This document shows, piece after piece, positions 294 to 37,596 of a stretch of DNA of 64,000 nt. The translations under genes and the position numbers were made by a program. Each line of letters starts with the position of its first letter. Position 1 is the stretch's first letter. The notes beneath the pieces were generated by a model. That model did no database searches and was not told the DNA's origin. It saw only the letters and a program-made list of their open reading frames with translations. Source of the DNA: Callorhinchus milii. Its lineage: Eukaryota. The stretch is from the NCBI RefSeq assembly GCF_018977255.1, contig NW_024704757.1, positions 11,842,001-11,906,000 on the forward strand. The letters are read 5' to 3'.

Positions 294-3200
294 CTGATTG
301 GAAAATTTTAAATCACAGACAAAACAATTTTTACTCACTTTCTTCAGCAGAACAATTGCAATATTTACCATATACTGTAGAGCTAGTTAATTATATAGAC
401 GGTCATGTAGACAATTTTACAAAAATCAGTTTCAAACGGTACCTCTGACTGCATGTTTCAATGTAAGCTAATAGTTTTGCCTAGAGCTTACATTTGTTCG
501 GATTTGTTCTGTGTAAAAAGCAATTATCAAAGATGATAGTGAATCCATTAAAAGCATTACTCCGTTATTATTTTGCTAAAATGATTATTAAACGTTTTCT
601 TAATCACTGAAATATTCCATAATTGGAAAGCGCAGAGAGACCTTCTCCAGCAGTCAGCCTGTGCCACAGCTGCTTAATTCTTCCATGATGACCACTGAAC
701 TCTAGAATGTGTGATTTCTTCTGAGTTTAATTAAAGCAAATAAAAAGGTACAGTGGATGCCCTCTCATATATGCAAGAGGAAATCACTTGTGATGCTTGG
801 TAAAAATCCAAAGCACAGCTTTCAAGTTATGAAGGTGACATTATGACTGAAACATAGGTGAATGGTTTCCATGGATGTTTCAGGGAACACTTTTCCTGAG
901 GGGAGATGTGTTCTCTGAAACTTTCTGATTAAGCAATAAGTAAGTTATGGACCAGGCCTGTTTGCTGCACGAATTACCCTACACATCTTCAAGTAAAGCA
1001 TAGAAAACAGGTTCAGTTTTTTTGTTTTTTAAAGCTTAGAATTAATTTTAACAAAACCTTTGATTGTTTTCCAATATCTTCATTGCTTCATTGAGATTCT
1101 TCCCCATCTCAGCTAAAGTGGGATCCACCATCACCTGCCGGGCACAAAATGACAACAAATCTGAATATTGTAAGCCACACATGATCATTGCTAATGAATA
1201 TTTCACCACTGTGCTACCTTGGTAGTATTACTGCTATAAAAGCAAGCAAAAAGTTGCCATCAGCGCTACTCCTGCAAGTGTCTCAAAAAAGATAAAAGTT
1301 CTATAGGTAGGTCAAACCAAAGCAGCAGGCAACATCATTAAAATAAAACTGTTCATTTGCAGATAAACTAGAATGAACCATTTCTGAATGGTGAATCCTG
1401 CAATTGAAATTAAAATGGGAAATTAAAGCAATTCTAAGAGAGCCAGTAAATAGCCAGAGAGCCATAAAACACAAACTGGACACTTTATTGTACTTGAGGT
1501 TCATCCGCATACAAACTGTTAATATAACCAGATCATACTGTATATGAGGTCATGTGTTTTTAAAATTATGTGTTCATTCTTCCTAACCATAACATTAGAT
1601 TATTTTTTAAAAAAAGGTATCTACAGCATTGTGAATAGTTACTCCATTTTAATGAATTGATCCCTTACTTTGCAAATAATGTCAACAGATCAGTTGGGTG
1701 GAAAGAACGTTAGAACTTTTACAATCTAAAAGATATTTAGAAACTCTACCCGAAAAGGCAAATTACAATAAGCGAAGATAAACATGTTCTGGAGCAAAAA
1801 AAAAGAGAAATCAAAAATCACTCAGTAACCCAAATTCAGCCTATATTTGGCTTTCAAATTCTATTACTACCGACAGTCGTATTTTGTGAAAGACTGTCCC
1901 CGTTCATCTGCATTTCCCTTGCAAATCTGTCATATGTTAAATATTTACTTTTCAACTGATGCCGGCATATATACTGTTCAAACGTTTGTTGCAGCTCCCT
2001 CCCTTCTAAAATTTTTGGTGTAAGCATGAAACCAATCGGCTCTGCTGGAGAAACGTTTGCTGCTTTTATTGCCACAAGTTTACTGTGTCATGGCGAATAC
2101 TGCACTTCAAAAAAGGTTCCGTCATCTCCATCTTGCAATTGAAGCAAACTTTAAATGTCACTTCCAAAAAAAAATGTTTTCAAAAGAGAGAACAGAAGTG
2201 ATGGATTGGAAAATTAAGCGCTGACAATAATACTGTGAAGCGCCTACTGTTTCCTAGATTTCTATTTTTTCTATAGTTTTGCTTGCATTGTACGATTGCT
2301 CTGCAGTTTTATGTGGATTTTATTTACATATGGTAGGAAAGTATGAGCCCGTATAATACTGATAACAAATCAATTAACAGGTCTGGCATATGTGAAATAG
2401 ATTCTGATCCATATAATAGTATTTGCATTTCTTTTGATATGCAGCTTCCTGCTATCACTAAACAGCCAGGAGAGGTAGTATAACCATAACAGCAAAGCAG
2501 AGAGGGAAACCAAATCCAAGTCCCAATAGCCTCATATCATCCGAATATCAAAATGTTTTGTACATGGAAGCTGAGTAACTACCGTTTTAGTTTTGTAATA
2601 AGGATTTATTTCTGTGCGATAGTCTGATTTGAGTATACGAAAACAGATGCAATTTATTTTAAATTGTTTCACATATTGTGGTTCCCTAAAAAAACAAAGT
2701 CGTAAAAATATATATCTTGCGCAACTTAATTCTTAACATCTTCAAGTGCATTCACTGTCACACTAAACCCTTTTAGCTAAACTGTGCACTGTAGCTAAAT
2801 CAACTGATGAATTAACAGAGTAACAACAGTGGAACAATTAAATTAGGTTACGCATATTGAATGTCTTTATGGGCGTTATTTAAACAACATTATAAAGAAA
2901 TGTATTGGTTATTAATACATCAAGATAAGACAACTTCATTGTTTACAAACCTGTCGGACTTGAAAAACAACCCGTCTACTGAAACTGGATTTAATGGAAA
3001 TTGCTGTAAATACTGAAGTGAAAATGTACTTATGGCCTCAGGTAACTCTTGTCTAAACTACAGGACTCTTGGGAGTCCTGTAGCTCAGTGGTTAAAGAGC
3101 ACTCGCCTCAGAAGCGAGAGACCTGGGTTTGATTCCCGTTAGGGCGAAATGTTCGGCAAGTTTCCTTACTCCACACGCCTCTGTTTACCTAGCAGTAAGT

Positions 3201-6200
3201 AGGAACCCGGTTGTTAGTCGATTGGTGGATCGCTTTTCCGGGGATAATAATCCTTAAAAAAAGAATAATTTGTTCACTCAATCCATGACTGTTTGTGGGA
3301 CACTGCTTTGCACAATTGGCTGCCGTGTTTCGCCCACAAATATAGAGTCAATTCACTTTACAGTATATTCTGTGAAACGCTTTGAGACGTCTAGAAGACA
3401 TGAAAAGCGTTATAACAAATTCAAGGATTATTATTATTATTACAGTCGTTAGTGGAACTTTAAAAGACTCCCATTCAAGATTACAACATTGGACACTAGC
3501 AATTGCACAAAATAACAGAGTCAGCAAGCCAAAGCAGACTCTTTAACAGTCTTTCACAATCAGAATATTTTGGATTAAATTATTCAAGTACGCAGTAAAA
3601 CATTTCGACTGTAAGCTACAGTTTCAAAGTGAGTTGGGATCAACTGAGGACATTGTAAGACACTAACATATAATGGGTTATTAACCATATTGTACATTAT
3701 CGAATGACGGTGACATGCTCTCTGATGCTTGCCAACTGTATACCGTGTGAACCAGGCCAGCAACCGTTTGAAAACTGGAAAGTTTAAAAAAAGCTAGTCA
3801 ACTTGCATTGAGTAAATGTTTCAACAGACAGTAATTAATTTCAAAATACATTTTTGCTCGCTGCAAGACTATCCAGCTCACTCCATCTTCAGAGGTGCCT
3901 CACTACTGGAAATTAAGATTATTATCAAGATTATTGTTACAACGCTAGCCTACATTTCTAAATAAGTGGCTTTCTAAAATGTATTATAATCAGTGTCTAT
4001 CTGGTAAGGAATGACTGGAGTCAGGGTAATTTACTGTCAGTATTACAGTTAACAAAAAACCTACACAAAGAAGTGGATTTGCCTTATAGTTTTAAGCAGC
4101 TAAACAGTAGAGCCAGAACTTTTTTTAAAAAGGATCCTTGGAAATATATGTTCAGAGCTGACTTTTTAAATCTTCGTTCCTGTTAACGGGCTCTTCAAAA
4201 TAGCAGAAAATCTTCTGGGGGAAGGATGGTTCCATGCTTGTTTTAGTCCAAGTTCAAATAATAATAATAATCTTTGCATTTTGATATAGTGCTTTTCACG
4301 TCGGGAGGACGTCCCAAAGCGCTTCACAGAACACACTGTAAAGTGAATTGACTGTATATTTGTGGGCGAACGCGGCAGCCAATTGCGCACAGCAATGTCC
4401 CACAAATGACCAATTTTATTATTGTTTTTGGTTTTGGAGGGATTATTATTCAGCCCCAAATCAAAAGATTTAATACTTTCTCCCACAACCTGCACAGTAC
4501 AGCAGCGCAAAATGAATAGTCACTGTCCATTATTCCGCAGTGTATGAAACTGATCGTGACAGACCGATGGCCTTGCAGAATTGAGGGCACCAAACAGATC
4601 AAATTACAAGCTCTAAGGTAAACTGGGAACAGTACAGGCAGCCATCCGCATTCTTCCAAGAATCAACTTTGTTTTATTGTGCTGAAACCAGGACTTCAAA
4701 TTAGCTAATAAGGATGTCAACCAAACGTTCATTACAGCAATCGACATTTTGGAAGTCGTGTGGTTAAACAAACAGCATCGTATCAACGTTTGTTAAAAAA
4801 ACGTTAATACAATGCTTTTTTTTGATAAACGTTGATACAATGCGTTAGTTGATACAGCGCCTTGGGACGTCCATCTGACATGAACAACAACAAGATTACA
4901 TTTGTTTAGCGCCTTTCATCTATACAAATGTAATTTTCTTCTTGTTGTTTGTGGGGAAAACGTTATAACTTGAGTGAGTGGAAGCTTGCCTTCAGATTGC
5001 ACAATTTAATCTTATCAGGTGTAAACATAATCCATATTAATGGTACAAGCTAAAAATTTGCAGATTTTATTCAGGTAACTATCTTTGTGAAGGTATACCG
5101 AACCCCTCGAATTTACAGTTTAATAAAAAGAAGGAATTACACTGGATCTAATATAATAATAATAATGGATCTAATATGTTTATGTTACATGCAGTGCAAT
5201 GCAGTAAACTTTTTTTGGAGCTTCTCAGAATCGGGATTGTTAGAATTCAGAATTGTATACTCAGTTTTGATATTTTTAAAAACAGTTACTGGAAAATCTT
5301 CAGGAATGAAGATTAATAGTGCTGTTGCAGTGCGTCAACAAAGGCAATAATTGGAACATAATCTTTGAAACTATTTTTTTAAAAACGAATGTTGTCATTA
5401 AGAATATTTGAGGTATCAATGCACTACAGGAAACAAAAATTACACTTGGGCCAATTTGCTTAAATCAACAGATCAATATGTTTTGCCGACAAACCTCTAA
5501 ATCCCACCCAAAAGTACAGCAGAATGTACAACATACCTATAACCAGTCGTTCACCCCTGTGTTAAATACCTTAACATGGTTAATTCAGACAATCCTCTTA
5601 GTAAAAACCTATAAGTTTTCACAATTCAAGGGGACACTTTGTACGAAAACCCTCGTTCTTTACTAATATCCTGGAGTAGTCACCTGAACCGGACATTTTC
5701 CACCATTGTTCTTTGTTGAATTCTAAGGTACAACAGAGTCAACATTAGAACACACCCAGAGGCCTCAGAGTTAAAACTAATCCAAGATCACCAACAGATG
5801 CAGACTATTCAGACAGAACAGCAATCAATGAGGTGTGTAATATGAGCTCAGTGGGTAAGCACTTAAGTCAGAGGTTATGGGTAATAATCCTTTCAAAAAA
5901 AAATGAGAATTTTGTCACACCCGACCCACGACTGTTTGTGGGACACTCCTGCGCGCAATTGGCTGCCTCGTTTCGCCCACAAAATATACAGTATATTCTG
6001 TGAAACGCTGTGAGATGTCTCGAAGACGTGATAAGGCACTTTTTCAAATGCAAGGGCCATTATTATTATTGTGATTATTATCATGATAACAAACCAAACA
6101 TTGGGACTTGAGCTCACAGTCTGGCACTCCAGTGGAGTAATAGGTGAGGGCTGCACCGTCACAGGTGCTGTGCTGTCTTTCGGATACGATATCAAACTGC

Positions 6201-9200
6201 CTGCTTAGGTGCATGTTAAAGATTCCGCTGATATTATTCAAAAAGAGAAGAAAGTTTCTTACGATGTCCTGGCCAAACATCTCCCACATAAGTTAGTCCT
6301 TCAGTTCATTGGACATCTATTTTTGTCGACAAATTCAACAGCTATGTGCAAATAGCTGTTGAATTTGTCGACAAAAATAGGGAACTTGAGACATTTTAAC
6401 ATAGGCTGAATTGAGTCCCTGTGATCTAATTCGAATGTGCCCTGCCTGGATGTATTCAACAACTGTGACAATATTCTGCAATACGTGCCCATAAACAATA
6501 GAGGACTTTTCAGCTAAAGATAACTTTAGAGGAATCAAAACACCTGTGCATCAAAAATGCATTGATTATTTGATAGCCTAAAGTAGGGGAAGTGAGATCC
6601 CTTATAACAAACGGAGCAGAAGCAAACTGTTTTTGAAGGGGGAAAAAAAAAGCAATTTAAAAATATAAAATTAAAAATAAGTCCTAAGGCAAGTTCTGGA
6701 GAAGGACATTTAAAACAGTCAAACCAGACCATTTAGCTATATTGATAGCACAGTTAGCACAGACAGATTTTTAAAAGCAGTAGAGAAAGCTTAGGTTTGT
6801 GAACATCACATTGAGAAGACAGACCCCCTCCCCTCGGGACTAGAACTTTGCACAACAGTGACTGTTATTGAAAATTGATGACTTTTGTCAGGTAACAGCT
6901 CTGCTCTCAAAATGGGTTGGAACCTGAGTTTCAGGTCGAGCACCAGTTCATTTAGAAATAGTGAAACTCTAAAATGTCCAAAAGAAATACAAACAAAAAA
7001 TATTATTGTGGCTGTTTTTCAAAATTACTCACGGTCTTGCGATTTTCTTTTCTGGCAAGTACTGCAAGACACCTGCTAACCTCGAGCCTCCCTAATCATA
7101 GCACTAACTATTGAAGGCCAATGGGGAAATCATCCTGTACATGAATCAAAGTGTGCCGCTAACACAGTATACCAGTTTCTCTAAGTGGCATGTTGCTCAA
7201 TTAAGTGTATATCACACAATCGGTCCCAGGACTACACCAATGGAGGTGACATTTTATATGCATGAGGTCATAATTACCAGATGGAAGAGCAGAATAATTT
7301 TCCTTTCAGTTCCACAGTCGCCACATTAACTCAATTCAAATTCCCTTCCTCCTTTCTTACAGAATATCTCATATGCAATTCAAATGCAATTCAGTGAAGT
7401 GCAATGCCTGTAAAACATTTTCGCTTCACAACCACTTTTTCCCCCAATATAGAAATTCAAAATAAGTGTTCTTCAAATTGACTGATCACTGAATTAATAT
7501 AAGATGCATACTTAACAGACCTGCTGTACAGACCCGAAACAGTAAGGCTCGTGTTATGATTCTACAGTGGCAAAGGCTAATTTGAACACAGATACACTTT
7601 TTGGAAATATCAAGTGTTCAGTTTTCAAAGTGCATATCAGATGCTCAATGACAACCTGAACATTTTGAATGGTCACAGAGCAATGGAATTAAACCACCAT
7701 TCCATTACAAGGTGACACAACCTGAAAATCAATAGTGACAATTAGAACTAAAGTCAGGAAGCTTCTTCGCATCGAGGGTTGTGAAAATGCGAAATCATCA
7801 GAGATGTTTCAAAGAGGCAGATATTTAGATAGCAGAAGGTGTACGACAAAAGGATGCACATTGGAATTAACAAAAATCAGACACCATCTAACATTTATTG
7901 GTGGAACAGACTCAATGGTCTTCTGTAATCATATGTTCTACATTTGTAACAATTATGTTGAATCACCATAGGAATCATTCTCCTTTACCCAACATTATCC
8001 AAAGGCACAATGTTTTCATTAAAAACAATAAACATAATACAGCTAGCAGTTAAAGACCCCACTGCAGACTGTGTTTAATGTTTTTGTTCATTTCAACAAC
8101 TCAATCACTTGTACATTACAAAATTACTTCTCTTATAGCAATCTAGTAAACATTTTTTTTCCTGTTACCATCTTGTCTTGAAACAAACACAAGTAATGTG
8201 CAGCACTCCAATCTGACGTCAAGATAAGTGTCAAACAAAGCACTGTGACCTCAATCAATCAATAATATGTTTTAAGAGGACAAGGATCTCTTCATCATAC
8301 ACAATGAATTTGTATGTATACTGTACCATCCATTACAGTCATCAGATTATACCCAAAGCTGCAAATCCTTCAAACAACACAATACTCCTTCAGTGAGCAT
8401 CTCCCAGTATATTGCCCAACAATCCTGAGATAAAACCGGTCATTCACATCTTGGCTGTTTTGGGGACATTGTAGTGCACAAATTGGTTGTTGTATTCAAA
8501 ATAAATAACCTTTACATTTGATGTAGCACTTTTCATGCCAGAATGTTTCCAAGCCCTTCGCAGGATATACTGTGAAGTGTAAAGTTTAATGATCAGGTAT
8601 CTCACCTACAAATAATAATCCTTGCATTCGATACAGCACCTTATCACATTGAGAGGTCTCAAAAGCATTTCACAGGATAAACTGTAAAGTGAATTGCCTG
8701 TGTTTTGTGGGCAAAATGCACCGCAATTACACTTTGCAGTTAGATCTTGTGAAGCACTTTGAGACATTTCGATAGAGGGCTAGACATTGTGATAAGAGTG
8801 CTAGATCAACCGCAGGGATTAATAATATTACAGTGATACAGACTGCCTCACCTTAAAGCACAGGAGAGATACACTAAATACATTCCATTGAAAACAGGTA
8901 TGTTAAGCATGCGTATAGGTCTTGAAGCCAGAAATGAGCTGTGTTTTTTTTCCCCCTTCTCTCTCTACCCAACTAATCGAATGACACCGAAGATTTAGGA
9001 GGGGTGGAGGGAGAGGGGGTGGAGGGGAGTGGAGGAGAAAGGGGGGGGGGTGGGGGGTTTGGGTGTGGGAGGGTCGCCGAAGGCACGATCAAAGAGAAAG
9101 GTCTTTAGACGAGACTTGAAAAGAGGCAAGACAGGGGAGGGGGTGAGGCTGAGGGATTGCGGGATAGAGTTTCAGTGTGGGGGGGGGGGGGGGAGTGGGG

Positions 9201-9747: not shown

Positions 9748-9984
9748 GTGCGTGTGGACGGAGGCCCTGTTTGCGGGTCAGGACAGGAGTGTGAGGAGGG
9801 GGAGCGGAAGGCGGGTGTGTGTCTGTGGGTGGGGGGGAGGGGGTGGGCCGCCGCCGCCGCCGCTGCTGCTGCTCCTCACTGCCGAGGCCTCCCTCCCGCC
9901 TCCGCTTCCGCCGCCATCACCGCTCGCTCCACGTTGGCAGCTGACGTTACCACCCGCGCCGCCCCGCCCCCTCACGGCGGGCCG

Positions 9985-10230
9985 GCTCCGCGCGTGCGCA
10001 CCGCCACACCGCCCCTCCCCCCGGGGAGAAGCTCCGCGCGTGCGCACCGCCCACACCGCCCCGGGAGAAGCTCCGCGCGTGCGCACCGCCCACACCGCCC
10101 GCCCCGGGAGAAGTTCCGCGCACGCGCACGGCCGTACCATCCGGAGACAGATCCGCGCGTGCGCACTTGCCACACCGCCCCACCCCCCCTCCCCCAGGGA
10201 GAAGCTCCGCGCATGCGCGCCGCCACACCT
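9985..10230. repeat. ~40-bp degenerate tandem repeat (gggagaagctccgcgcgtgcgcaccgcccacaccgccc), ~6 units, each with an NRF1-consensus 12-mer
   Basis: Cores at 9989, 10035, 10074, 10117, 10154, 10208. Confidence 0.85.
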
Positions 10231-10984
10231 GCCCTGAGCCGGCACTGTCATGTCAACCACCAGCTGCCGCCACCAGGTGTGTCAGACACCTGGGCCTCGG
10301 GCGCCCCCTCCCCCCCCTCCACCCCACCCCACCCCCCCCCCGCCGGCCCCAATGGCGTCCACTCACCCGCCCGGGTTGACGATCACAATGATAGTCCTTC
10401 CTTGCGGAAACGGCCACTCAGCAGCGGGTCAGGCGGGGTGGGGCGGGGCAGGGCGGGGCCCCCCGGGGGGTGGGGGTAGGGGGTGGAGGGGTGGGGGTAG
10501 GGGGTGGAGGGGGGGGGGGGGGGGGAGAAGAGAGCGGAGTCAACGTTCTGGGGTCCACCGACGTCTTCGTCAGGACAGAACTTGGCCGGACCCCCGACTG
10601 CCGAAGGCCGGCGGACCCCGAAACGTTGACTCGCCCTCCTCTCTCCCACCCCCCTCCCCCCCCCCCCAGCGACGCCGCCTGACCCGCTGACCAGCGTTCC
10701 CAGCCGCGTCTTGTTTTTTTCTTTGGGATTTCGTTCCGGCGTCTGCGGTGTTGGGCGCTCTGTACATACCAATCCTTGCGTTTGATACAGCGTTAAGATA
10801 CACACAAGAACATAAGTGTTGGCTTGCGGCCAGAAGACCAAGGTCCGTCCAGTTTGTCTTCCATCCTCCTGGCAGCCGCTTGACATGTCCCGTCCCGTAC
10901 TGTACACCAGGTGTCCCCGAGATATTATTTTCTAGTTGGAATCTCTCTTAATTTGTTCTTGAAACAAATAACATTTTCTACTTC

Positions 10985-12767: not shown

Positions 12768-13077
12768 ATGCTGAGATCCATTAGGTCTGGGATAAAGAGG
12801 TTCCCTTGGATCACCAATGTCACCCTGTACAGCTGTGTGTTCGGAGCAGGTGATGTGGTCCAGCAGAACCTTTCCAAAGAACGCGAAGCCAAAGTGGACC
12901 TCAAGCAAACCCGAAACATCCTCCTCCTAACCTTCAGTTTTCACGGCAATTTCAATTTCTTGTGGCTCAAGACGCTGGAGAGAATGTTGCCAGGTGTGAC
13001 GATGGGTAACATCGTGAGGAAGGTGTTGTGTGACCAGCTGTTCGCGTCTCCTGTCGCCATCAGTGCCTTCTACGTGG
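12768..13077 (+). CDS. MPV17L: MPV17L coding exon 1
   Basis: ATG after (GA)n; ends TAC GTG G|gtaagg. Confidence 0.92.
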
Positions 13078-15918
13078 GTAAGGTGTTCCGCCAACCTGGG
13101 TGTGAGCAGGGTAGGGCATTGATCACCATCAATAGTGATCTGATCACCAATAAGTACCCAATCTGGGCTGTAGGGCATGGCACATTGTCACTGATCATCC
13201 AAAGCCTCTTCCACAAGCCTGATGGGTCATCCAATCTGGGCAGAGAATAATAATAATAATCCTTGCATTTATAATGCAAATGTAATCCTTGCAAATATAG
13301 TTGCTTATCACGTCTTTGAGATGTCTCAAAGCGCTTTGCAGGATATACTGGAAAGTGTTTTTGAGTGTATTTGTGGGTGAAACGTGTCAGCAAAGAGAAC
13401 GCAGAAATATGAATACCCATCAATATTGGCATTCAGCTGTGTTTAAAAGTTAGTCATTTTGCTACGAAATTTTGAGAAGAGAATCTGACTAAAAGGAAAC
13501 TGAAGTCCGCTGATAAACCAGTCGCAGGCATTACGAATAACGTCTTTGATCATGAAAACAATGTCTATTCATTGAACCATTTATAAAAGCCTGCATTAGT
13601 GCTGAAAATTAAAATGGCCTTTAGGGGGAAATGTATCTGATTGAAATGATTAAGGGTTAACGCAACAAAGACACTTAAGATAATTTACTGACACTGAAAT
13701 CCTCAAACTGAAATAAAAGACAAGAGCGATCTTAGCTGCTTGTTCTGAAATATCTCTAAAGTTTCCTTTCGAACATAGAACAGGAAAGCTTGCCCTATTC
13801 AACACTTTGTCACGTTATCAAATCAAAGCTGACTGTTGAACCTGTAAATCATTCAATTAGTTCTGCACATTCAGGCCAGAAGTAAAAGAGGCACAAACAT
13901 AGCTGCAATGATTTATTCATTACTTGTAAGATTTTATTCATTACAAGTAATGAATAAAATCTTATTTCTTTAATAAGATTTTCTACTTAACTGTTTACTT
14001 TGCTGCTACCTTAACGTAATTTGTAATATGTTTCCTCTCCTCTTCTAGGCAATCAATAAATAATGAATAAAAACTGTTTTTTATTACAAGACACATTACA
14101 AGACATATTTGAAGACACTTGTAACAGCTATCTTTGTGCCTCTTTTACTTCTGGCATTAACCTGTAGAACACAATGGCAATAAGCCATGTGCCAAAGCTG
14201 TGTAACTCAATGCAGCAACGCTAGTAAGGATAACGTAAGTGGGAGGGAACGTTTTCAGAGAAGGATTCAGTCTTCTCTTTCCTTTTTTTATTGTTTATTC
14301 CTTCCCAACGATGCTTTTTTGTTATTGATGTCGTTTAGGTATGAGTGCACTGGAAGGGCAACCAGATATATTTGGAGTCTGCAGAGAAAAGTTCTGGAAC
14401 TCGTACAAGGTAAAAACCGAAGACTGAAAGTTGATCACTTTGCACCTTAGTTTTTGTCAATGTCAGGAGCAGGAGAATGCCAACCTTCTAGTATCAGTTT
14501 AATCAAAGTCTACGGCTCTTTCACACCTGATAATGCAATGTGTCTTTTCCCTTATTATTACGAGTGTGATCGCAATTTCATTTTGGGTAAAAATATAGCC
14601 AAGGAATACTAAGAGCTAATTAATTATTGCAGAAGTGAGGCAAGAGTGCGGTGCAAAATAGGCACCTCAAAGGACTAATGAACTGCTGTGGTTTAATTTA
14701 GGTTACACTACAACATACAGCAGTGTATATCATCTATGTGATGCACAAATTGATTGGCACTTTTGACTCCTATTCTCTGCATTATATCATTGTTCGCTGA
14801 GCTGACATCTAGCTTCGCCCCTTATATTGGGCAGGTGATTTTCTACCTGTTTGGAGGCTGCCCATACCAGTCAGTTACCAACCATTATGCAATGCAATAC
14901 CAGTGGATCAGGTTGACTGAAGTGTGGATAATCTCCATTTACAGGAAACAGCATCTGACTTCCCTTTTTTCAAGGTTGTGATCTGAAATTTAAAGTAGGA
15001 GAGTGGTGAATGGTTGAACAGAAAGTATGAGCTAAACATGTCTTAAAATTGAGAGACTGTAGCGGGTTTTGAGGGGAGTTGCAGTGATATATTTGTTATC
15101 AATATGAATATAATCCATCCTAAACGTGTTCTCGACACATCTGAGTAGTATTGAAGAAATACAAAGGATAATACAATAAAGAGGACAAAACTATTATTGA
15201 AAATTATTCAACTTAATTCCCCTATCAAACTATTTTCTTTTCAGATTGGTGTGGCATATTGGTCTGTCATGCAGGTAAGTTTTCAATATTTCTTTCATAA
15301 GAGTTTATACTTAACGTTTTATTTTGCTGCTACCTTAACCTGGGGACCTGGGTTCGATTCCCGGGTAGGGCAAAACATTGGGCAAGTTTCCTTATTCCAA
15401 ATGCCTCTGTTTATCTACCAGTAAGTAGGAACCTGTTTGTTACTCGATTGGCAGATTGATTTTCTGGGGGACAATAATCCCCTCAAAAAAATAATAATAA
15501 TAATTTGGTCCTCAATCCCCAACTGATTGTGGGACACTGCTGTGCACAGTCAGCTGCCGTGTTTTGCCCACAAAACATACAGTCAATTCACTTTACATTA
15601 CATTATGTGAAGCACTTTGAGATGTCTCAAAAATGTGATAAGGTGCTACATAAAATGCAAGGAATATTGTTATTATTTTATTAAAGTAATGTCTTTCCTC
15701 TCTTCTTCTAGGCAATCAACTTTACCTTTGTGCCACCATATGTAAGGACAGCCTTTGCTGGCTTTTGTTGCNTTTTTTGGGCCATCTTCATGTCGTTTAC
15801 CCAGCAGAGAGGAAATGGCACTGTTTTTGCAAACCTACTTAAACCGGCTAACTCTGGCAGTGAGGGCAAGAAGTTAGAGTCGGAAAATAAAAAGGACAAC
15901 ACTCCACCTATTTCATAA
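12768..15918 (+). CDS. MPV17L: MPV17L (Mpv17-like protein, Mpv17/PMP22 family), ~205 aa; exons 12768-13077, 14339-14409, 15245-15274, 15712-15918
   Basis: PWITNVTLY...AGDVVQQ...[19 protein letters not shown]...KVLCDQ...SAFYVGMS...EKFWNSYK...[14 protein letters not shown]; all junctions GT-AG and in phase; first three exon sizes (310/71/30) match what I recall of the vertebrate gene. Confidence 0.95.
13860..14170. repeat. Inverted-repeat-bounded composite containing a copy of MPV17L intron 3 and the exon 4 junction
   Basis: ~46-bp imperfect inverted arms at 13860-13905 and 14124-14170; internal 18-bp-arm hairpin; copied segment 13963-14056. Confidence 0.85.
14339..14409 (+). CDS. MPV17L: MPV17L coding exon 2
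   Basis: tttag|GT ATG AGT GCA...TAC AAG|gtaaaa. Confidence 0.93.
15245..15274 (+). CDS. MPV17L: MPV17L coding exon 3 (30 nt)
   Basis: tttcag|[10 protein letters not shown]|gtaagt. Confidence 0.92.
15340..15682 (+). mobile_element. 5'-truncated SINE in MPV17L intron 3
   Basis: B box ggttcgattcc, body and tail as in the 3071 copy. Confidence 0.87.
15712..15918 (+). CDS. MPV17L: MPV17L last coding exon
   Basis: tcttctag|GCA ATC AAC TTT...TAA; contains one ambiguous N base (15772). Confidence 0.9.
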   Translation, partial: AINFTFVPPYVRTAFAGFCCXFWAIFMSFTQQRGNGTVFANLLKPANSGSEGKKLESENKKDNTPPIS

Positions 15919-35361: not shown

Positions 35362-37596
35362 GATGGCAAAATAAATGTGGTCCCAACACAGAAGTAGCCA
35401 GCAATTCATAAGCCATTTTTCTGGTTAAATTTTGGTAGAAAGTACATTCACAGGAAAACAAAACAAAGTGCGAGTCTTTGTCACATTTTCAGAAACATTA
35501 AATACTTTAGCCAACATAATGTTTGAAGACTTCAAACAGATGCTTCGACCAGTTTACATCAATCAGTTGTACAAAGCTTATTCAAATTAGTCTACACAAA
35601 TTACCAACATACATTTATCCAGACCTGCATATATAAGCCTCCATTTCAGAGTACTGTAATATTTCATATAGTTTAGACATCACAAAGCCATAAGTCTGCT
35701 CTAAAGCAGAGACCTGCCATAAGTGACTTGCAACTTTCCCGACCAAAAGATTTTAATTCCTTTACTTCGGCTTTTGTTATAAGCAGGAACGAACAGTTGC
35801 CCTGCAATGGTTACTGCACATCAACCGGTTTTGCTTAGCAGTTAAATCGCCTCCATTTGATCAGAATTGTTAAAATTCTCATGTGCTCTGAGGCACAGAT
35901 ATTGAACACTGTGTTTCAAATTCATTTCAGGATTAGAGTTCCAGTTTTAATTTGGAACTGACAGATTAGTTTTTAAATTCCAGTTTTGCTACAAGTTTTA
36001 AAAATGAACATTTTTAACAATTGCAATTTCAAGGCACATGCACATGTTTCAACATGCACCTCACCATGACTCCAAGTCGATAGAGAGAAGAGAAAAAACC
36101 CCACGCGCACACACATCAGTTACTTCCACCTTTTGTTATTAGACACAAACAATCTCTGGCACCAGCGGAGAACTTTTTTTTTAAAAAAAAAGGTTCACTC
36201 TAATCTAGAAAAAAAGATTCATTCTCTACTGGCAAATACAACCCATTGTAAAAGCCAGCTCTGCCCAGAAGGCCCTAAGGGACCGACTGCTACATCGTTC
36301 TCAAATCCTCCAACCTCTCCCTTAAATTCTCATCTCATCTCATCTAAAAATGCAAAAATCCTTTCAACCTTATCCAAGGTCATCACACTGGCACCAACTC
36401 AGACATTTAAGACTTAAAACTTCCAGCAACAACTACTCAAGACAAACACACAGAAATGGAATAAAAGCAACCCACATTAAAAAGACAACCTTCTGAGACG
36501 GTTACTCACATAGCTTCCCAATGAAACACGCTTTTAAGAAACCAAAGCAAGGTTTAACAAAACCTTGACGTTTCAACATGCTCAGGGGATTCAGCTCCAT
36601 TAACTGTCAAGTGGAAATAGCAACTTTTAAACAGCAGTTTCCCCCTTCGCCTGCCTCATGACTTGCGATTTATACAATAAATGCATATTTCACATTGAAT
36701 TGAAAATCACATTGAAAATCACCAATTTCTGCACAGGTGCTGTTAGCTTCCAGCTGAAGCACAGAGTACAGCAGAATGCTAGGGCAATGGCGACTCCAGC
36801 TACTTGATGTACTTCATGAGGTCAGGACGAGGCAAGTGAATAAATCAACTTGCAGCAAAAAAAAATACAACCTAAACCTTATGGGAAGCCCAACGTACGT
36901 CCCAACATACTAGCATTGCTAAGAAGCTCTTCAGTTCCATTCTGCAGCAACAGGACACCGACACCACAACCATTCAACAAGATCTGTTCTGCCACAGACA
37001 GAAGTGAACAAGACTGGAGGTTAGATTATATAGTTACAAGTCACCCAGGTAACATTCTAAACAGTTCAGTTACACTTTTACCCTCTGACTGTACAAGCTG
37101 TATTATTATTCAGCAGGTATTGGATCAAAGTGCAGGATTTTAGCAAAACGTTCTTGTGCATTTTAGTAAAAACCTTCGGAGCTGGATAACTAATATGAAC
37201 AGGCTTTTTAATGCAAGAAACAGCTTTCTTTTACTTTTTTTGTAGAAAAAAAGTCCGCGAAACATGACAAATACCTAAATTATAATAAACTATACACACA
37301 TTTTGGAATAGTATTGATAGTCAAATAAGAATATTGCTCATGTACTGCATCAAATCCAAATGCATTGGGTCAGGCTACAAGCACAGCCAAGTTCTTCTCT
37401 TACTTTTTTAGGGTTATCTTAATTACTGTTTAAATACAGAAGCTGATTTCTAAGATCAAAATGGTGTGCATCTCACTTTGGATTTAAGCACTTGAGAACT
37501 GATTTCCGTGCTTCACTCAAATCTAGTTACGTAATAAAATTGCATCTATGTATCCTATTCCCTCCCTCCCCCCCCACCACCCCATTTTAAACACAT

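Follow-up and report, generated by a model that had tools for sequence, protein, structure and literature searches.

A patchwork insertion in intron 1 of MPV17L in Callorhinchus milii as the probable scar of one template-switching repair event

The gene MPV17L and its copied intron

The stretch of DNA analysed here (the window) comprises 64,000 nucleotides (nt) of Callorhinchus milii, namely positions 11,842,001 to 11,906,000 of contig NW_024704757.1 (assembly GCF_018977255.1), and all features below lie on its forward (+) strand. It contains MPV17L, which in the gene model has four coding exons, a 205-codon open frame and GT-AG borders at every intron. The coding part of exon 1 (310 nt) occupies 12768–13077, with a phase-1 donor at 13078, and is followed by exon 2 (14339–14409), exon 3 (15245–15274) and the coding part of exon 4 (15712–15918). 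Exon 4 also accounts for a Pfam Mpv17_PMP22 match (E 2.5e-6, 27.9 bits, cut-off 27), and two bamboo-shark proteins named Mpv17-like show 55% identity to exon 1. Intron 1 holds a single-copy patchwork of about 200 nt (13860–14056) that reads as one insertion made through about ten template switches. We consider it fairly probable that this patchwork was left by one germ-line repair or fork-restart event, likely copied from a template older than the short interspersed nuclear element (SINE) now in intron 3, and that it likely has no function.

The longest part of the insertion is a copy of intron 3. Positions 13963–14015 are identical to 15287–15339 at 47 of 53 sites (89%), and positions 14023–14056 to 15686–15719 at 31 of 34 (91%). 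The first half derives from the part of intron 3 upstream of the SINE and ends in TTAAC, which is branch-point-like as judged from the consensus; the second half carries the pyrimidine tract, the acceptor AG (14047–14048, corresponding to 15710–15711 in the donor) and the first 8 nt of exon 4. Only 7 nt (14016–14022) separate the two halves at the position held by the SINE in the donor, where the halves lie 346 nt apart and the intervening DNA is 99% repeat-masked. This linker represents either slippage that repeated the following 5 nt or target bases that the donor lost when the SINE inserted. Local alignment scores of the two halves were 76 and 53, against maxima of 35 and 31 among dinucleotide shuffles (0 of 2000 as high in each case), so the match is not AT-rich coincidence. 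A search against the entire genome (991.5 Mb) gave the 53-nt match an E value of 3.4e-10, and intron 3 was the sole other match of the 94-nt copy. Copy and donor have the same orientation and are separated by 1272 nt, or about 1.3 kb. The first-pass annotation had placed this match correctly and had described it as nearly all of intron 3 plus the first 8 nt of exon 4, lying in intron 1, which agrees with the gene model: the copy begins at position 13 of intron 3 and stops 8 nt into exon 4. Since it covers most of one intron, an exact transposition of intron 3 by reverse splicing into intron 1 comes to mind. That origin is refuted by the same boundaries, as the copy lacks the donor site and the rest of the initial 12 nt but includes 8 nt of exon 4, and we assign it next to no probability.

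Contigs from four DNA runs of one study were used as a check on the assembly. The left inverted arm described below and the copy were spanned in all four runs, the whole of 13860–14170 in a single contig in two of four, and both junctions of the SINE were bridged in all four. None of the 15 joints listed skipped the insertion or the SINE, a count to be read with the fact that contigs drop rare variants. The presence of the insertion in four runs argues against an assembly error, which had been named beforehand as one way in which the copy could prove spurious. The runs differ from one another at many sites and thus probably come from different animals, one of which may be the source of the assembly.

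Inverted arms, templated filler and the repair event

The insertion is bounded on the left by one of two inverted arms. The left arm (13860–13905) and the right arm (14125–14170) are complementary at 40 of 46 positions, with a perfect 23-nt core (13875–13897 in the left arm), and score 62 against a maximum of 28 among 2000 shuffles. Miniature inverted-repeat transposable elements (MITEs) and Pack-type elements with terminal inverted repeats carry inverted arms around host-gene sequence, and the first-pass annotation had accordingly offered a MITE-like element that captured host DNA as one possible origin. The likeness ends with the 46-bp arms around captured gene sequence. In 991 Mb the arm core occurs twice at up to 2 mismatches, both times at this locus, which makes it single-copy and argues for a local event rather than a MITE. 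At 3 mismatches there were 4 further matches against 3 in a control, and these do not extend, as the arm outside the core agrees at only 5–7 of its 23 bases. A DNA search of the genome with the whole 351 nt likewise found local matches only, although absence of a match in such a search does not prove rarity, and no direct repeat abutting 13859 and 14171 was found that could represent a target-site duplication. In addition, the captured DNA originates only 1.3 kb away and the rest of the interior consists of local tiles. A non-autonomous DNA transposon is therefore largely refuted and, in our estimate, extremely unlikely. The earlier description of the copy as wrapped in inverted repeats holds for the 40 of 46 paired positions; it is descriptive only, and the best reading takes one arm as a tile copied from the other. 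The two arms by themselves give no indication of which is the copy. By parsimony, we infer that 14125–14170 is original and that the single-copy left arm was written backwards from it.

Between the left arm and the intron-3 copy lies an AT-rich patchwork (13906–13962, 82% AT) made of overlapping tiles of 8–12 nt, seven in all, from both flanks and from the copy. Of its 57 nt, 56 fall in exact matches of at least 8 nt to templates outside the segment. Comparable coverage was reached by 0 of 5000 shuffles (mean 0.22) and by 0 of 429 AT-rich unmasked genomic segments (mean 0.21). The first-pass annotation missed the templating of these 57 nt, which supports the other origin it had proposed, a templated insertion by template switching or repair of the type attributed to DNA polymerase theta (Pol-theta). 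Tile 13907–13915 matches a 9-mer of the left flank (13845–13853) backwards, its likely template as a reverse complement. Tiles 13912–13922 and 13932–13943 both correspond to the right flank at 14061–14072 backwards, and tile 13948–13959 to the same bases read forwards. Tile 13922–13929 matches 14117–14124 and tile 13939–13947 matches 14094–14102, whereas tile 13927–13935 is drawn from the copy itself (13974–13982) and tile 13956–13966 from the copy backwards (13972–13982). Successive tiles overlap by 4, 1, 3, 4, 5, 0, 4 and 4 nt, where the final value belongs to the junction with the copy, so that six of eight joins have overlaps of 3–5 nt and the remaining two have 1 and 0 nt. The presumed original right flank (14057–14124), which supplies the templates 14061–14072, 14094–14102 and 14117–14124, also contains a 12-nt tandem repeat in three units.

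The filler also ties the parts of the insertion together. The two tiles taken from the copy (13927–13935 and 13956–13966) agree with it at both positions of 13972–13982 where the donor now differs. Filler and copy therefore likely arose in one event, and the changes at those two positions likely arose later in the donor. Together with the first bases of the copy, the filler forms a 38-nt palindrome (13927–13964) and an 18-nt inverted repeat (13912–13929/13941–13958). Exact inverted matches of at least 11 nt cover 124 of the 311 nt of the locus; none of 1481 background segments is as high, and the next reaches 106. With the left arm taken as a copy of 14125–14170, the whole of 13860–14056 is locally templated except for one base and the 7-nt linker.

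A single sequence of steps would account for these features. A break would have occurred near 13859/14057, after which one end would have used intron 3 and exon 4, 1.3 kb away and in the same orientation, as template for about 94 nt and then fallen off. About seven re-primings on AT-rich stretches of 8–12 nt of the new strand and both flanks may have followed, before 46 nt of the right flank were copied backwards and the ends rejoined. A polymerase of low processivity would be the likely writer, with the inverted arms and inner palindromes as by-products. Only afterwards would the SINE have landed in intron 3, immediately after the branch-point-like motif, so that the copy would preserve the site in its empty state. 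[quoted passage not shown]

The same structure could also have been built in two steps, in which an inverted duplication made the arms and the loop of the resulting hairpin later broke, a second repair then capturing intron 3. The arms are nominally more diverged (6 of 46) than the copy (9 of 87) while the inner repeats are exact, and elsewhere in this genome (locus L078, below) a 100-nt inverted local copy does sit between the inverted arms of a repeat element. The divergence intervals overlap widely (4.9–26% against 4.8–18.7%), an uninterrupted 23-nt core is not exceptional when 46 positions hold 6 mismatches (P = 0.075), and the filler follows the left arm with a single base unaccounted for and draws on the right flank that also served the arm. 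We regard two steps as unlikely and retain one repair event as the origin of the insertion.

The SINE of intron 3 and the order of events

The element in intron 3 (15340–15685, ends uncertain by a few bases) is a 5'-truncated copy of an abundant SINE with a tRNA head and a (TTA)n tail. It had earlier been placed at 15340–15682; a SINE does lie there, with clear homology from 15344/15345 only, and it is identical to the consensus of 36 other copies at 281 of 317 positions. It lacks about the first 46 nt. Among 3'-intact copies in the genome 163 of 182 likewise begin after position 5, so 5' truncation is the rule for these SINEs. CmiSINE (SINE2-1_CM/SINE2B-1_CM; PMC5499810) is a likely label only; the published CmiSINE consensus has a tRNA-Ala head, a CORE domain and an L2 tail.

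The 53 nt of intron 3 before the SINE (15287–15339) resembled, by eye, a decayed tRNA head, which would make the copy younger than the SINE. This candidate was rejected, with scores of 8 and 10 against a background mean of 8.7 and 29% of 5000 shuffles as high; a score of 8 against the SINE head was equalled by 55% of 6000 genomic segments. The 53 nt are unique sequence, and the 23-mer across the junction is single-copy at up to 3 mismatches. In the intron-1 copy the two flanks of the SINE meet, each to within about 5 nt, and no part of the SINE is present. Flanks joined within a few bases, with nothing of the SINE between them, indicate that the copy likely predates the insertion, and a template from before the SINE is in our judgement very probable. 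The claim of the first-pass annotation that the copy is the older of the two is to that extent upheld, although divergence does not confirm the order (P = 0.11, below). The copy thus likely records the state of the SINE site before insertion without an outgroup.

Two further lines of dating were tried and set aside. A TTAAC/TTAAA target-site duplication as proof of the exact empty site is weak, as the SINE tail itself gives TTA; an anchored target-site match of at least 5 nt was found in 7 of 34 full-length copies (mismatched controls 6.9%), and one of at least 8 nt in 0 of 34, so that clear target-site duplications are uncommon among these SINEs. Ages calculated by hand put the copy at about 50 Myr and the SINE at about 105 Myr; the SINE value is inflated by CpG decay (14 of 36), the two are not comparable and neither is used. 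They rest on the rough substitution rate of PMC5499810, 1.0–1.1e-3 per site per Myr, beside which that paper gives a six-fold slower one. The SINE lies directly behind the branch-point-like TTAAC of intron 3 (15335–15340). Behind its tail stands TTAAA (15681–15685), whose fourth base is 27 nt before the acceptor, as in the copy minus the linker. Judged from sequence, this second branch-like motif may be how the insertion of the SINE was tolerated.

Several observations weigh against a single event from a template older than the SINE that left a functionless insertion. No empty intron-1 allele was found in the four runs, and the breakpoints and the original arm were thus inferred; all 24 runs listed bear one species label. 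The arms, with 6 mismatches in 46, and the exact inner repeats could differ in age. Of the supposed original flank 14057–14124, 60% also lies under local 9-mers, partly through reciprocal matches and through its own tandem repeat. None of the 24 polymorphisms listed falls in the insertion or the right arm, where 3.3 were expected (P ~0.03), in a test that is post hoc, concerns linked sites and draws on at least 24 sites among the differences listed. Three of those listed lie in 13860–14170 (311 nt), all within 14057–14124, and this gap is the one hint of constraint. Outside CpG, the SINE differs from its consensus at 22 of 282 positions (7.8%), from which about 15.6% would be expected for an equally old neutral pair; copy and donor differ at 9 of 87 positions (10.3%, 95% interval 4.8–18.7%), under that expectation (P = 0.11), and the point estimate leans to a copy no older than the SINE. 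This difference would shrink both under constraint on the donor's acceptor and with subfamily structure in the consensus.

This point estimate also favours the possibility that the copy was made after the SINE had inserted, by a polymerase that skipped the element through short microhomology and so produced a fossil that mimics the empty site. The event clearly had many switches, and TTAA stands at both ends of the SINE (15335–15338 and 15681–15684). Both switch points would nevertheless be needed within about 5 nt of the SINE ends over a jump of 346 nt, whereas an empty template accounts for them at no cost. Moreover, the divergence seen would also suit a copy as old as the SINE or older, particularly since the donor acceptor is constrained. 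We hold a post-SINE origin to be distinctly unlikely and continue with a template that predates the SINE.

A duplicate acceptor and the likeness to known repair scars

The copy keeps the branch-point-like motif, the pyrimidine tract and the AG in a form nearly identical to the exon-4 acceptor and, as a candidate cryptic acceptor (14023–14056), lies 290 nt ahead of the acceptor of exon 2. A gene can thus carry a near-perfect duplicate of its own acceptor. Use of this site with a consensus donor at 14235 would define a hypothetical pseudo-exon of 186 nt (14049–14234), which by anatomy alone would resemble a poison cassette exon of nonsense-mediated decay (NMD), with an in-frame stop three codons in and AATAAA at 14055 and 14066. 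Our prior is that the copied acceptor would be silent or a source of rare noise. It is conceivable, though very improbable, that one accident built a stop-containing exon of 186 nt (or, through AATAAA at 14055 and 14066, a short terminal exon) together with a hairpin switch that tunes MPV17L output, the co-born inverted arms folding the pre-mRNA around the acceptor and setting its usage. If regulated use of the acceptor under such a hairpin were shown, one mutation would have given rise to an exon together with its structural switch, which would be rare. In the predicted fold the arm cores pair with a probability of 1.00 and the acceptor lies in the loop, with mean pairing of 0.25 for the pyrimidine tract (mostly open), 0.44 for the branch motif and 0.67 for the AG. 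A hairpin that directly hides the acceptor is not supported by this fold, as the predicted pyrimidine tract is mostly unpaired. The z-score of the fold, -8.8, is a consequence of the inverted repeats and does not indicate function, and by eye one of the six arm mismatches allows a G-U pair. Looping out is described in PMC11802352 for stems that enclose a whole exon, whereas at this locus the hypothetical exon itself contains the right arm.

A search with exon 1 among proteins of 56–181 residues gave two hits from three candidates, both from bamboo shark and neither with the end of the predicted truncated form, a result too weak to count. Among the titles and abstract openings of the matches listed, the MPV17L literature offered nothing on this intron. 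An annotated, predicted isoform X2 of the bamboo-shark Mpv17-like protein diverges from the shared sequence exactly at the exon-1 border, which suggests that another acceptor may follow exon 1 in a shark; its sequence, as judged by eye, is unrelated to the intron-1 copy. Upstream of MPV17L, at about 9960–10240, lies a GC-rich array of short repeats with GCGCGTGCGC-like palindromes, possibly a promoter with NRF1-type sites. The assembly also has a single N at 15772 in exon 4, which gives an X in the MPV17L protein.

Local duplications were surveyed in 864 kb, made up of the window, 200 kb beside it and six 100-kb blocks elsewhere. Anything with a match more than 15 kb away and any tandem repeat was masked, which left 590 kb, and local pairs of at least 40 nt, at least 80% identity and at least 50 bits with less than 30% masked were kept. 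Fifteen of 802 local matches remained, namely 2 from this locus, 1 near-tandem pair and 12 other dispersed pairs (10 direct, 2 inverted). Dispersed local duplications of unique DNA thus occur about once per 70 kb, mostly 0.2–1.9 kb apart; this count is an upper bound because rare repeats escape the mask, and the method is not comparable with published densities of repair-mediated duplications. Local copying is ordinary in this genome and this many switches is not. Frequent local copies, within that upper bound, are a possible resource for dating repeats. The window itself also has direct duplications of unique sequence at 36935–37379/38868–39332 (468 nt, 84%) and 38736–38818/39331–39410 (83 nt, 86%), which abut in the second copy. 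At L078 (about 3000–3660; G000:C3:30093000-30093660), a 100-nt stretch that copies DNA 350 nt away backwards (93%) sits between the inverted arms of a repeat element and is possibly the product of a hairpin that broke and captured nearby DNA. At L115 (G000:C23), 6218–6648 and 7079–7934 hold two local copies in collinear order, 129 nt at 88% identity and 201 nt at 99%, with a fully masked LINE-like (long interspersed nuclear element) fragment of 528 nt in the gap of one copy and 101 nt of unique sequence in the other; as the identities differ, two events are probable.

The survey also bears on the possibility that unspliced pre-mRNA of MPV17L itself, rather than DNA, was the template of the long tract. 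Copy and donor share strand and gene, the copy nearly coincides with one small intron (from +13 to 8 nt into exon 4), and PMC5110952 proposes an RNA template for templated sequence insertions. Eleven of the 14 non-tandem local pairs, this locus included, are direct, so orientation is no sign of an RNA template, and the coincidence with the intron was spotted post hoc. The copy has neither a splice junction nor a poly(A) tail, its flanking 12-nt direct repeat (13948–13959/14061–14072) is one tile of several and no clean target-site duplication, and the inverted tiles call for both DNA strands as templates. RNA-templated repair is quite improbable, and a DNA template remains our preferred reading. 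In PMC5110952, class 2 templated sequence insertions have distant donors for which RNA is proposed. They have in common with our locus a copied patch at a presumed break and an intact donor, but the donor here is local. The poly(A) tail and target-site duplication that the same paper gives for LINE-mediated class 1 insertions were not found at the copy.

Pace et al. (2009) have reported repair-mediated duplications (RDs), or doublets, of 50–619 bp with a single donor less than 5 kb away (PMC2671141). In that work donor distance has an apparent peak near 1.2 kb, possibly an artefact according to the authors, and the duplications show filler and microhomology, have no poly(A) tail and also occur in zebrafish and chicken. 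The present copy agrees in size, 1.3-kb distance, microhomology, filler and absence of a poly(A) tail: 94 nt (at least 50 bp) have one donor across a gap of 1272 nt (>50 bp, <5 kb), the left join has a 4-nt overlap, the filler is templated and no A/T run of 5 stands at the ends of the copy. Those RDs have acceptors inside transposable elements whose consensus provides the empty site, and one or two templates; here the acceptor is unique, the empty site is deduced and about ten templates took part. The paper also mentions 20 chimeric-acceptor cases and donors of partial exon and intron in 4 of 824, and Table 3 names no cartilaginous fish among its species. Among the matches listed in a literature search, none beyond PMC2671141 dealt with local copies used as fossil empty sites, and the RD tables of that paper could hold similar cases.

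Complex germ-line templated insertions (MMB-TI) are described in PMC8421209 as non-gene-disrupting variants with multiple templates in both orientations and microhomology joins; each germ-line event is reported to have up to five templates, which were looked for within 100 bp. Our locus likewise has several templates, both orientations and consecutive switches at microhomology; it differs in having about ten templates, one of them 1.3 kb off, and in being an old and apparently fixed event. Pol-theta templated insertions (TINS) are typically of 3–30 bp and from flanking DNA, with AT-rich, direct and inverted primary tracts rarely longer than 10 bp and longer ones built in several rounds (PMC7165422). 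The seven filler tiles of 8–12 nt fit this description, whereas tracts of 46 and 94 nt and a reach of 1.3 kb lie outside it. Overall, the mechanism is likely an ordinary one of repair, of which this locus is a clean and traceable example in a cartilaginous fish.

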